Positions 8,300-11,899 of a DNA stretch of 64,000 nucleotides are shown here, piece by piece. The position numbers and the translations under genes are program-made. The notes beneath the pieces are model-generated. The model ran no database searches and had not been told where the DNA came from. It saw only the letters and a list, made by a program, of their open reading frames with translations. The first letter of the stretch is position 1. Each line of letters opens with the position of its first letter. The stretch comes from a phage: the sequence record PZ674596.1; one strand, 5' to 3'.

Positions 8300-9373
8300 A
8301 TGGCAAAAGGAAAATCCGCACTGGCACTTGCTCTGAAAAAGAAAATCGGTAGCAACGACGAAATTCAGAAAGTAACTCATTGGATTGATACAGGCTTTCC
8401 ACCGTTAAACAAAGCTATTTCTGGTCGTTACGATGGCGGCTTCCCATGTGGTCGTATCGTCGAAGTATTCGGTCCTCCAAGTGCAGGGAAAACGTTCCTT
8501 GCAACAGCAGCGATGATCTCCGCTCAAAAACAAGATGGTCTGGCGGTATTCCTCGATCATGAAAACAGTTTTGACGTTGGCCTGGCTGTAGCCAATGGCC
8601 TGAACGCAGATGAGGATGACGGTCAGTGGGTATACAAGCAGCCTGATACCTTCGAAGACTCTGTAGAGTTGATCGGCACAATTCTTAAATTGGTACGTGA
8701 TGAAGAGCTTATTCCTGAATCAGCACCTATCTGTATCGTGGCTGACTCACTTGCGTCTATGGTTCCGAACTCCAAAGCCGAGAAGTTCGAAAAGATGGCT
8801 GAAGGCACTGCCAAAGACAAAGATCAGCTAAACATGAACGACAATACGGCACTGGCTCGTGCGACAAGTGCGAACTTCCCTACTCTGGCTTTGTGGGCAC
8901 GCAAATACAACGCCTGCATCATCTTCTTGAATCAGGTTCGCACAAAAATCGGTGTAATGTTTGGCGACCCTACTACGTCGCCAGGTGGAGATTCACCGAA
9001 GTTCTACGCTTCTGTACGTATCCGTCTTGGTGCATCGGTGATGAAGGATGGTAAAGAGAAGATCGGCCAGGACGTAGGCGCAGAATGCATCAAAAACAAA
9101 GTTGCACCACCGTATGGCAAATGCACCTGGAAATTCTACTTCGATCCTACTCGTGGCCTCGACGTTATCGAATCGCTCGTCGAGTACATGCTGGAAGAAG
9201 GATACCTGCCAAAGAACGCCAGCGGGCGAGTTGAAATTGGTGACAAGAAATACACCAAATCGCAGATCGTCGAGATGTATCGGGAGAAGCCACTGGCTGA
9301 AATCATTGCGGCTTTGCAGGCAATCGACGACCGAAGAGCAAAAGACAACCCCACCGAGTCAGTAGAAGAGTAA
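8300..9373 (+). CDS. RecA-family recombinase (UvsX/RecA-like)
   Basis: 357 aa; RecA-type Walker A VEVFGPPSAGKTFLA; RBS AAAGGAG. Confidence 0.75.
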   Translation: MAKGKSALALALKKKIGSNDEIQKVTHWIDTGFPPLNKAISGRYDGGFPCGRIVEVFGPPSAGKTFLATAAMISAQKQDGLAVFLDHENSFDVGLAVANGLNADEDDGQWVYKQPDTFEDSVELIGTILKLVRDEELIPESAPICIVADSLASMVPNSKAEKFEKMAEGTAKDKDQLNMNDNTALARATSANFPTLALWARKYNACIIFLNQVRTKIGVMFGDPTTSPGGDSPKFYASVRIRLGASVMKDGKEKIGQDVGAECIKNKVAPPYGKCTWKFYFDPTRGLDVIESLVEYMLEEGYLPKNASGRVEIGDKKYTKSQIVEMYREKPLAEIIAALQAIDDRRAKDNPTESVEE

Positions 9374-9377
9374 ACAC

Positions 9378-9402
9378 AAGGCGTCCACAGGACGCCTTTT
9401 TT
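9378..9402 (+). terminator. Rho-independent terminator
   Basis: AAGGCGTCC-aca-GGACGCCTT followed by TTTT. Confidence 0.7.
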
Positions 9403-9465
9403 ATCTCTTGAAAATATATAAGTACTTACTTATTATTTTCGCATAACAACCACATAGGAAAACAC

Positions 9466-9666
9466 ATGATCAAAATCTATCTATTGGCAGTAGCCACAGG
9501 CGTTTCAGTGGCTCTCATCTACGGTTTACTGGTTCCGTCGCTGATTTCTACCAAGAGTGATTTAGCCGTCATGTTTGGAGTTATCGTTGGTTTTGGTGCT
9601 CCTGTAATCGGTCTTATTGCTGGTCGTAAGTTTATCAACTCATTAATCAAAGCAAAGGGGAAATAA
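9466..9666 (+). CDS. small hydrophobic membrane protein (possible NfeD-like partner of SPFH protein)
   Basis: 66 aa, two hydrophobic helices, basic C-terminus; 3 nt upstream of SPFH gene. Confidence 0.45.
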   Translation: MIKIYLLAVATGVSVALIYGLLVPSLISTKSDLAVMFGVIVGFGAPVIGLIAGRKFINSLIKAKGK

Positions 9667-9669
9667 GTA

Positions 9670-10500
9670 ATGAAGAAAGGTTTACTTGCAGTTGCTCTGG
9701 CGGCTATTTGCACAATGGGTCTTACTGGCTGTGATCGCGTGGAGCCTGGATACGTTGGCATCAAAGTAAACAAATTAGGTGAAGACAAAGGGATCGGTGA
9801 AGTGGTTGGCGTTGGTCGCCAATGGACAGGTCTTAACACCGAACTTTACGTATTCCCGACCTTCAAACAAATGAAGACCTACGACGAACCGTTCACATTC
9901 CAGATGAGTGACGGTACTGCTATTGGTCACAAAATTGGCGTTGCGTATCTGGTTAATCGTGACAAGGTAACGACGGTGTTCCAGACCTATCGCAAAGGCG
10001 TAGACGATATCACCGAATCAGATCTGCGTCAGAAAATTGCCGACTCTCTAAACCGTTTGGCCAGCCGTATGACCACTGACTCATTTATCGACGGTGGTAA
10101 GGCGCAATTGCTGGACAACGCACTGAAAGATATTCAGAAAGAGATGTCTCCGGTTGGTATTGAGGTACTGAGCCTGTCATGGGTTGGAAAGCCTGATTAC
10201 CCAAAAACCGTCATTGAATCTATCAACGCCAAAGTAACGGCTAACCAGCGTACTCTGCAACGTCAGCAGGAAGTTGAACAACGTAAAGCTGAGGCGAATA
10301 TGCTACGTGAACAGGCTAATGGTGAAGCTGATGCTATCCGTGCTCGTGCGCAAGCAGAAGCAGACGCCATTCGTCTGCGCGGTGAAGCTCTGCGTCAAAA
10401 CCCGAACGTTATGGAACTGGAAGCCATCAATAAATGGAATGGCCAGTTACCGCAGTACATGACTCAAGGGGCTAACACTCCTTTCATTACAGTGAAATAA
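9670..10500 (+). CDS. SPFH/band-7 (prohibitin/HflC-like) domain lipoprotein
   Basis: 276 aa; signal peptide with lipobox LTGC; C-terminal A/E/R/Q-rich coiled coil typical of SPFH proteins. Confidence 0.6.
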   Translation: MKKGLLAVALAAICTMGLTGCDRVEPGYVGIKVNKLGEDKGIGEVVGVGRQWTGLNTELYVFPTFKQMKTYDEPFTFQMSDGTAIGHKIGVAYLVNRDKVTTVFQTYRKGVDDITESDLRQKIADSLNRLASRMTTDSFIDGGKAQLLDNALKDIQKEMSPVGIEVLSLSWVGKPDYPKTVIESINAKVTANQRTLQRQQEVEQRKAEANMLREQANGEADAIRARAQAEADAIRLRGEALRQNPNVMELEAINKWNGQLPQYMTQGANTPFITVK

Positions 10501-10516: not shown

Positions 10517-10542
10517 AGGCGTCCAGTTGGACGCCTTTTTTA
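10517..10542 (+). terminator. Rho-independent terminator
   Basis: AGGCGTCC-agtt-GGACGCCT followed by TTTTTT. Confidence 0.7.
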
Positions 10543-10591
10543 TCGCAATTATCTTATTAAGAAAATAATTTGTTTAAAAGGATAAGAAAAC

Positions 10592-11348: not shown

Positions 11349-11563
11349 GTTTACAGTAAAGTTTATATAAGTTAGTATCTACCTATCATGAAGATTTTTA
11401 TTGAATACTTGTTACTCATCGTTTCAATAGCTTTTGTCATCGACTGCATTTTCACTGGTGTCATTCGTAAAGTCTTTTCCCCGGTGCACGACGTAGTCAT
11501 AAACGCTTTGGCTATCGTGCTCGTATTTAATTCAGCATTTGATGTAATCAAAGAGGTGGCAGC

Positions 11564-11899
11564 ATGAAGACCATTCCATTCGCGCTGTTGTTTCTTTCTT
11601 CGATCGTTGTGGCCGACACCACTGTTTATCAGTGTGAAATGTCTGTAGCCGACGTTAAGAATGGCGCTCTTACCGACGTCATAAAAGCACCATATGGAGC
11701 GATGGTCGTAGACAGCGGCGACCAGTTCTATGTTGTGCGTGACGATCGAGTGTTGTCATCCCCATATCTCACAAATCGTAATGGCAAATTAACCGGCGTC
11801 GGAGAAGACCACTTCGTATACAACAAATACAAGGGCTTCTATGGCGTTCACGCTTCTCAGCAAAGCTACCTTTTCGATGACTGCAAGGAGGTTGGGTAA
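11564..11899 (+). CDS. secreted hypothetical protein
   Basis: 111 aa; N-terminal signal peptide MKTIPFALLFLSSIVVA. Confidence 0.45.
   Translation: MKTIPFALLFLSSIVVADTTVYQCEMSVADVKNGALTDVIKAPYGAMVVDSGDQFYVVRDDRVLSSPYLTNRNGKLTGVGEDHFVYNKYKGFYGVHASQQSYLFDDCKEVG

Follow-up and report, generated by a model that had tools for sequence, protein, structure and literature searches.

The 64,000-nucleotide stretch of phage sequence record PZ674596.1 analysed here (the window) is an SSU5-like Escherichia coli phage-plasmid, and at positions 9466-10500 it carries a cassette of two genes, one for a 66-residue membrane protein and one for a 276-residue lipoprotein of the SPFH (Band 7) family. It is fairly probable, in our estimate, that the two products are the two subunits of an SPFH scaffold that the phage itself makes on the host inner membrane, on the side towards the periplasm. 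The evidence comes from the family, fold and export signal of the larger protein, from the conserved loop of the smaller one, and from the constancy with which the two genes are found together, or fused, in distant phages.

The SPFH lipoprotein

The larger protein matches the whole of the Pfam Band_7 profile (PF01145; E 2.6e-30, 106.2 bits, cut-off 23.6), with residues 23-209 aligned to profile positions 2-176 of 176, and it matches PHROG 200, a family named 'lipoprotein', at E 3e-108. Matches to narrower families fall below the cut-offs: Flot in Pfam (PF15975; 19.9 bits, cut-off 27) and hflC and hflK in NCBIfam (TIGR01932, 30.2 bits, cut-off 134.4; TIGR01933, 18.7 bits, cut-off 159.4). The N-terminus, MKKGLLAVALAAICTMGLTGC followed by D, has a positively charged n-region, a hydrophobic core and a lipobox, L-T-G-C, with the modifiable cysteine at residue 21 and Asp at position +2. 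A first-pass annotation of this DNA had assigned the protein to the SPFH family and had seen a lipobox in it, and both statements are borne out. The Cys-Asp pair is kept in 97 of the 120 closest cluster representatives, and a lipobox is present in 114 members of a distant set, which comprises 150 representatives of 50%-identity clusters. Asp at position +2 of a lipoprotein is an inner-membrane retention signal in E. coli. Given its lipoprotein signal peptide, the SPFH protein should be exported to the periplasm.

An AlphaFold2 (AF2) model of the protein, built on a 114-sequence alignment, has a mean predicted local distance difference test score (pLDDT) of 93.3 and consists of an SPFH alpha/beta (beta-sheet/helix) domain followed by a long continuous helix. 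Downstream of that helix, at approximately 10429-10455, the C-terminal segment is modelled less confidently and carries the most conserved motif of the family, INKWNGxLP, in which W256 is invariant and G258 and P261 are nearly so among the 114 relatives. When the model was compared with solved structures by Foldseek, HflC and HflK (7vhq) were the top two matches (E ~6e-14), and the further matches were prohibitin (8rrh, 9o9z), erlin, stomatin, flotillin and vault (MVP) subunits. Foldseek probability was 1.00 for HflK/C, prohibitin, erlin, stomatin, flotillin and MVP, over alignments of ~250-315 columns. All of the matched proteins are ring or cage components, and this resemblance of the modelled fold suggests that the phage protein may also assemble into a ring or cage. 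The family profile, searched against solved structures, placed prohibitin 1 first (E 7e-10), ahead of HflK/C (~1e-6) and QmcA (5e-6). A fold search of BFVD returned nothing but viral proteins named by domain.

A dedicated two-helix partner

The smaller protein matches PHROG 1130, a family named 'membrane protein', from end to end (E 9e-26), and a Pfam search placed it in no family. It is laid out as a first transmembrane helix (TM1, residues ~4-27), a loop reading P24-S-L-I-S28-T-K-S-D, a second helix (TM2, residues ~32-52) and a basic C-terminal tail with five Arg/Lys. A head-to-tail model of both window proteins (pLDDT 89.9) likewise gives the partner as a helical hairpin, with helices at 2-27, 32-52 and 54-63. 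Pro24 and Ser28 are invariant over 20 diverse partners and the N-termini of natural fusions (below), with the loop following the pattern P-x-[LM]-[ILVM]-S. Since the tail is basic, the positive-inside rule predicts that both termini are cytoplasmic and that the loop is periplasmic. The partner evolves faster than the protein that it accompanies: in a comparison with the P2-like phage P88, identity is 77% for the SPFH protein and 25% for the partner (E 1e-5). A profile search with the partner alignment gave 43 close E. coli-type matches, all of them unnamed and lacking Pfam domains.

In the window the two genes are separated by 3 nucleotides. The partner gene is preceded by a ribosome-binding site, AGGA, at 9456-9459, and that of the SPFH gene, GGGGA, lies at 9657-9661, within the 3' end of the partner gene. 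Conservation of this arrangement was examined in 82 close loci, made up of 80 IMG/VR contigs together with P88 and phage Cyrano. In 81 of them the SPFH gene is immediately preceded by a two-helix open reading frame (ORF); locus L059 is the exception, as its contig stops within that ORF. With the best-supported start codon, these upstream ORFs encode 55-78 residues and either end a few bases before the SPFH start or overlap it. Both cassette genes are thus real, conserved genes and no chance ORFs.

The pairing extends well beyond these close relatives. About 18 of the 150 distant representatives are natural fusions, proteins of 320-392 residues in which an N-terminal two-helix module with the same loop motif is followed by a third hydrophobic segment at the position of the signal peptide, and then by the SPFH domain. 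The three fusions that were checked on their contigs are continuous ORFs, and one was recovered from two independent assemblies, where its surroundings are phage-like. Distant loci were examined through annotated phage records, in which a hidden Markov model (HMM) of the partner matched an ORF near the SPFH gene in the Stx phage phiP27 (E 9e-18), the N4-like Erwinia phage S6 (6e-16), Klebsiella phage KB57 (5e-13), the N4-species phage PMBT57 (1.5e-11) and Pseudomonas phage TL (1.5e-8), with weak or marginal matches in Burkholderia phage phi644-2 (8e-4) and a crAss-like virus (2e-3). Of 8 distant phages, 5-7 have a partner next to the SPFH gene, and the HMM places it there in N4, N4-like and LUZ24-like phages, Vequintavirinae and Stx phages.

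The invariant synteny, the 3-nucleotide gap and the natural fusions in distant relatives together argue that the two genes are functionally coupled and that the small protein is, as far as comparison of sequences can tell, a genuine and dedicated subunit. Both the two-helix membrane protein and its coupling to the SPFH gene had been put forward in the first-pass annotation, and both hold. The fusion order, TM1-TM2-TM3-SPFH, predicts in addition that the SPFH domain shares its side of the membrane with the loop and is opposite the termini, and the lipoprotein signal predicts that this side is the periplasm.

Two side observations concern the partner gene in other phages. In the P2-like IMG/VR loci (L048-L082) its 3' end is a run of A residues; with 6 A's the ORF has 78 residues and a 19-nucleotide overlap with the SPFH start. 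In one of these loci, L079, the partner is a 72-residue version that ends at the SPFH start, and we infer that its tail differs through a frameshift in the A-run, caused by one extra A. In phiP27 (AJ298298; L088 2816-3004) a 62-residue partner gene is present and unannotated in the record. This partner is of the SSU5 type, and the adjacent SPFH protein is of the P2/P88 type, so that partner and SPFH types have been shuffled.

Comparison with known SPFH systems

HflK and HflC, the SPFH3 proteins that form a cage around FtsH in E. coli, have the same full-length fold as the modelled phage protein: an SPFH domain, a long wall helix and a C-terminal cap segment. Further points of likeness are a periplasm-facing SPFH domain (predicted, for the phage protein), an inner-membrane anchor and the origin of the system in two different gene products of adjacent genes. 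The phage protein is nevertheless no orthologue of either, as its NCBIfam scores indicate, and it is phage-encoded and anchored by lipid, not by an N-terminal helix. The second phage subunit is a 66-residue two-helix protein and not a second SPFH protein. The tie to FtsH belongs to HflK/HflC, and is carried over to the phage pair by analogy only.

The prohibitins (PHB1/PHB2; 'SPFH4' in prokaryotes) provide the best profile match among solved structures, over nearly the full length of the protein. They are of similar size, and their domain faces the compartment that is equivalent to the periplasm. Identity in the structural alignments is, however, ~14-17%, and prohibitins, unlike the phage protein, have an N-terminal membrane helix, have no small partner and are eukaryotic and organellar.

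Among catalogued phage proteins, the products of the cassette are direct members of PHROG 200 and PHROG 1130 and correspond to SSU5_062/061 and CYRAN_57/56; relatives include AIZ95120/AIZ95119 of P88, 'gp20' of N4-type phages and gp12/gp10 of TL. The two families are catalogued apart, with PHROG 1130 filed under 'moron/host takeover', and no description of a PHROG 200-PHROG 1130 linkage or fusion was found in the literature. The fold itself is known; its phage-borne arrangement, lipid-anchored and made of two parts, was not found described.

Distribution among phages and hosts

SPFH homologues were detected by tblastn in 373 phage records. Temperate carriers include SSU5-like, P2-like, Stx and Burkholderia phages, and strictly virulent carriers include N4 and N4-like phages, LUZ24-like phages, Vequintavirinae and Ackermannviridae, as well as jumbo phages, phiCbK-like phages, crAss-like phages and Lak megaphages. 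Every carrier with a named host infects Gram-negative bacteria. Those virulent phages that were examined have the cassette genes in early or DNA-metabolism regions, behind an annotated sigma-70 promoter in the case of TL. In the temperate phages P88 and phiP27, they are found in an early operon after cox and between the repressor and the integrase, respectively. The cassette is present in ~5% of complete E. coli genomes (283 of 5,426), at 195 places on plasmids and 101 on chromosomes.

Since many carriers are strictly virulent, the distribution points to a core role in lytic development and not in plasmid maintenance or the life of the lysogen alone. The first-pass annotation had placed the pair on a mobile element and had found its role there puzzling. 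The location stands, the element being an SSU5-like phage-plasmid; the framing as a role on a mobile element needs correction, as the SPFH gene is mainly a phage gene with many strictly virulent carriers.

Genomic context and regulation

The region containing the cassette is 100% identical in nucleotide sequence to many E. coli plasmids of ~110 kb, 93% identical to phage Cyrano (pLF82) and ~78% identical to Salmonella phage SSU5. According to Pfam and PHROG matches, genes for a 5'-3' exonuclease and a RecA-like recombinase lie on the 5' side of the cassette, and a gene for a DUF7238 protein lies on its 3' side, with a Rep3-type initiator farther on. The guanine-plus-cytosine (GC) content of the cassette (0.41-0.49) is the same as that of the neighbouring genes, and the comparison gave no anomaly of composition marking recent foreign origin. 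Coordinates of the features in and around the cassette are collected in Table 1.

Table 1. Features of the two-gene SPFH cassette and its borders, in window coordinates
Feature	Position	Strand	Basis
Intrinsic terminator ending the RecA-like gene; left border of the cassette	9378..9398	+	9-bp stem (6 GC pairs), 3-nt loop, T-run
Sigma-70-type promoter: -35 TTGAAA (9408-9413), 17-nt spacer, -10 TATTAT (9431-9436)	9408..9436	+	10/12 consensus matches
Perfect inverted repeat ATAAGTA-CT-TACTTAT (16 bp), in the promoter spacer and overlapping the -10	9418..9433		Pattern scan
Gene for the 66-aa two-helix inner-membrane partner	9466..9666	+	PHROG 1130; hydrophobic helices; model
Gene for the 276-aa SPFH/Band-7 lipoprotein	9670..10500	+	Pfam PF01145, PHROG 200, AF2 model, Foldseek
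Lipoprotein signal peptide (residues 1-20), lipobox Cys21 (9730-9732), Asp +2 (9733-9735)	9670..9735	+	Sequence reading
SPFH (Band 7) domain, residues 23-209	9736..10296	+	Pfam match; model fold, block-mean pLDDT mostly 93-98
Long continuous helix, residues 179-243 (65 residues)	10204..10398	+	AF2 model; aligns with HflK/C and prohibitin cage wall helices
Intrinsic terminator closing the cassette	10517..10536	+	8-bp stem (6 GC pairs), 4-nt loop, T-run

Both genes are on the + strand, and the unit formed by promoter and genes is bounded on each side by an intrinsic terminator. The two terminators have nearly the same stem, and both, the closing one included, are conserved in SSU5-like relatives. 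A 15-mer, GGACGCCTTTTTTAT, comprising the 3' arm and the T-tract, occurs exactly at 9390-9404 and 10529-10543 and nowhere else in the window. Recombination at the flanking terminators might allow the cassette to be gained or lost. In the SSU5-like Klebsiella phage-plasmid pJN2-26 (L091 2610-3510), the SPFH cassette after the RecA-like gene is replaced by two genes on the opposite strand, one of which encodes a 258-residue protein with a weak HTH_Crp_2 or DnaD-like match. Because pJN2-26 has other genes there, the slot on the 3' side of the RecA-like gene is, by this comparison, variable.

The promoter region is conserved as the block CTTGAAAAT[AG]TATAAG..CTTACTTAT[CT]AT, which is kept in 23 of 23 distinct SSU5-like upstream variants, including that of SSU5 itself, and behind which the 5' untranslated region diverges. 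The inverted repeat within it recurs in the window. Allowing up to 3 mismatches, ATAAGTA-NN-TACTTAT has 24 matches in the window against 2.34 expected, and none of 100 shuffled sequences reaches 24. The better copies (at 311, 5894, 11040, 14874, 19558, 24275, 29892, 36156 and 50479) are intergenic and lie just 5' of + strand genes, often straight after a terminator. Further 16-bp sites are found at 11371, 13972, 32109, 59962 and 63216, along with the variant ATAGGTA..TACTTAC. The repeat looks like a putative operator, or a promoter element shared by a large regulon that would include replication and recombination units. A shorter candidate operator, the 10-bp palindrome TAAGTACTTA, was weak when taken alone (6 matches against 1.3 expected, with 1 of 100 shuffles reaching 6) and was rejected in that form; redefined as the 16-bp repeat, it gave the clear signal described here.

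Some expression data are available for the Cyrano orthologues. In the published LF82 RNA-sequencing data, LB medium gives values at or near the detection floor for CYRAN_56 and CYRAN_57, and both rise jointly to log2 ~7.3-7.7 after 6 h in macrophages, where the flanking RecA gene and CYRAN_58 stay near log2 4 (PMC9928086 S1 Table). The macrophage data comprise two replicates with low read counts and are taken as a hint only; as such, they fit an independent, regulated unit. CYRAN_60 and CYRAN_61, the orthologues of window ~11388-11899, also go from the detection floor in LB to log2 ~8.3-8.8 after 6 h in macrophages (PMC9928086), and since they rise like CYRAN_56/57, several units of this region of Cyrano respond together.

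Three further observations concern neighbouring and database sequences. The RecA-like recombinase of the window (8300-9373) has 357 residues, and that of Cyrano, CYRAN_55 (L002 2735-5074), has 779; positions 487-779 of the 779-position profile of PHROG 9666 align with residues 65-357 of the window protein, and in several near-identical plasmids a LAGLIDADG homing endonuclease is annotated at the RecA-like locus. Given this alignment, the length difference and the annotations, the RecA-like gene of relatives contains an insertion of ~420 residues near residue 65, probably an intein or homing endonuclease, that is absent from the window. A database protein of 303 residues (P0018) joins the first ~82% of the SPFH protein to the DUF7238 protein (PF01145 and PF23885), and is probably a deletion variant or an assembly artefact. 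The cassette genes of the window itself are ordinary, being identical to hundreds of database entries and domain-annotated already.

Proposed function and alternatives

No paper with a tested function for phage SPFH proteins was found in the literature, which yielded domain annotations and one speculation; a 2026 paper states that the reason for an SPFH gene in a phage genome 'remains unclear' (PMC13239085). In the model that we favour, the cassette would be transcribed from its own sigma-70 promoter as part of a coordinated, probably repressor-controlled, early phage programme, given that the repeat overlaps the promoter and fronts many other units. The SPFH protein would be exported, lipid-modified at Cys21 and held in the inner membrane by the Asp at +2, and it would form a ring or dome above part of the membrane, using the long helix and the C-terminal motif for assembly, as HflK/C and prohibitin do. 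The 66-residue partner would be the integral-membrane subunit, its periplasmic loop (P-x-L/M-I/V-S) meeting the SPFH subunit, so that the transmembrane helices, present in cis in HflK/C, would here be provided in trans. The purpose may be to fence off or regulate a host inner-membrane machine during infection. The two likeliest targets would be the FtsH protease, which the analogy to HflK/C and prohibitin suggests, and the inner-membrane DNA-entry step of competing phages (superinfection exclusion). The broader idea that phages of Gram-negative hosts, virulent and temperate, build an HflK/C-like cage in order to capture a host machine, by taking over FtsH-dependent proteolysis or by sealing DNA entry against rival phages, is offered tentatively, as a possibility and not as an expectation.

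Several points weigh against the scaffold model. The single basis for supposing a ring or cage is the resemblance of the modelled fold. Beyond the close enterobacterial group, the +2 residue is Tyr, Glu, Ser or Thr and not Asp, and the prediction of inner-membrane retention there depends on the fusions and on general sorting rules. With the partner HMM, no partner was detected in Caulobacter phage Karma, and both KB57 and TL have an extra small ORF between the partner and SPFH genes. The inverted repeat could be a promoter element instead of an operator. Finally, nothing in the data is specific to FtsH or to exclusion; that in N4-type and Vi01-like phages a neighbouring gene is annotated for exclusion amounts to a hint only.

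Exclusion can also be considered as the whole function, with an early periplasmic cage and its membrane subunit blocking the inner-membrane DNA translocation of later phages; we regard this as unlikely. T4 Imm, a small inner-membrane protein, has a role analogous to that of such a device. The predicted inner-membrane, periplasm-facing location is suitable, the genes have early-gene neighbourhoods in virulent and temperate phages, and the wide distribution is consistent with a benefit to phages of either lifestyle. The SPFH gene moreover adjoins an annotated exclusion gene in the N4-species phage PMBT57 (PF17420, E 2.4e-56) and in the Vi01-like phage PhiSH19. This adjacency was, however, seen in two phage groups only, known exclusion proteins use other folds, and no paper tying SPFH proteins to exclusion was found. 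Neither of the cassette proteins, nor the DUF7238 protein encoded downstream of them, matched a defence model of PADLOC-DB 2.0 (E <= 0.01).

A different kind of explanation, which we consider unlikely, is that the cassette is a lysogenic-conversion gene (moron) that, expressed from the resident phage-plasmid, helps the bacterial host against envelope stress or encodes an immunostimulatory lipoprotein or virulence factor. The terminator-promoter-genes-terminator arrangement is that of a self-contained unit, and pJN2-26 carries other genes in the slot that follows the RecA-like gene. In macrophages, the Cyrano orthologues are expressed ~10-fold above both neighbours, and no evidence for Cyrano induction was found there (PMC9928086). 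There is also a possible precedent in PM0222 (Pmorf0222; OAZ06802.1), an HflK/C-like prophage protein of Pasteurella multocida that is reported to be released in vesicles, to signal through TLR1/2 and to contribute to virulence (PMC9872710), in the one experimental report found on a prophage SPFH protein. As a prophage-borne SPFH protein in outer-membrane vesicles that acts on the receptor pair for triacylated lipoproteins, it may resemble the cassette product, and its reported role is in host virulence and not in phage biology (PMC9872710). Other observations speak against a moron. CYRAN_56/57 are not among the 13 Cyrano genes scored as morons, and in LB lysogens they are at or near the detection floor (PMC9928086), while the macrophage values carry the limits given above. 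Homologues with the same partner occur in strictly virulent N4, LUZ24-like, Vequintavirinae and crAss-like phages, which are never lysogenic. The promoter shares its inverted repeat with replication and recombination units, and the GC content of the cassette matches that of its neighbours.

The resemblance to bacterial NfeD-SPFH pairs suggested in the first-pass annotation did not withstand closer comparison. On that reading the partner would be an NfeD reduced to a minimum, bound to the C-terminus of its stomatin-like companion as in QmcA-YbbJ or PH1511-PH1510, and we now think this very improbable. In their general layout, SPFH1/2/5 operons do pair an SPFH gene with a co-transcribed gene for a small membrane protein (PMC2636767). 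The SPFH-NfeD operons (QmcA-YbbJ, YqiK-YqiJ, FloT-NfeD2 and PH1511-PH1510) share this layout and the fold with the phage pair, and the structural matches include, at rank 38, the QmcA chain from the complex with YbbJ (8z5g). Nevertheless, no NfeD family appears among the Pfam matches of 20 diverse partners, even at E <= 10, and 66 residues leave no space for the oligonucleotide/oligosaccharide-binding (OB) fold domain of NfeD. The conserved element of the phage partner is a predicted periplasmic loop and not a cytoplasmic OB-fold. NfeD-linked SPFH proteins, among them QmcA and the flotillins, face the cytoplasm. For YbbK/QmcA this orientation is documented, in contrast to the periplasmic HflK/C (PMC2636767), and the lipoprotein signal of the phage protein predicts the periplasm, that is, the side opposite to that of NfeD-linked SPFH proteins. 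Under the predicted topology, binding of the SPFH C-terminus by a cytoplasmic tail of the partner would be impossible. By sequence profile, prohibitin and HflK/C are also nearer than QmcA.

The label 'putative serine protease' in the records of phiP27, Stx phages, Erwinia phages S6 and Pastis and Caulobacter phages would make the protein a membrane serine protease or protease subunit, an explanation with practically no chance of being correct and rejected here, because the signal peptide, SPFH domain and helix account for the entire protein, with no protease family found in Pfam or NCBIfam and no protease fold in the model or its Foldseek matches; the label probably goes back to a former name, 'membrane protease subunits, stomatin/prohibitin homologs'.

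Significance

The window itself is modest, and the interest of the cassette lies in the family to which it belongs. SPFH cages, including those of HflK/C, prohibitin, stomatin, flotillin and erlin, have recently been shown to enclose patches of membrane and to control the proteins inside. With that precedent, the wide spread of the phage genes and their dedicated membrane subunit, the family could reveal a process at the inner membrane over which many unrelated phages must gain control. The pair is small, easily expressed and easily deleted from SSU5-like phage-plasmids, so that the question is directly testable. If the proposal is true, phages would by means of such cages take over host membranes in a way that is widespread and has gone unrecognised.

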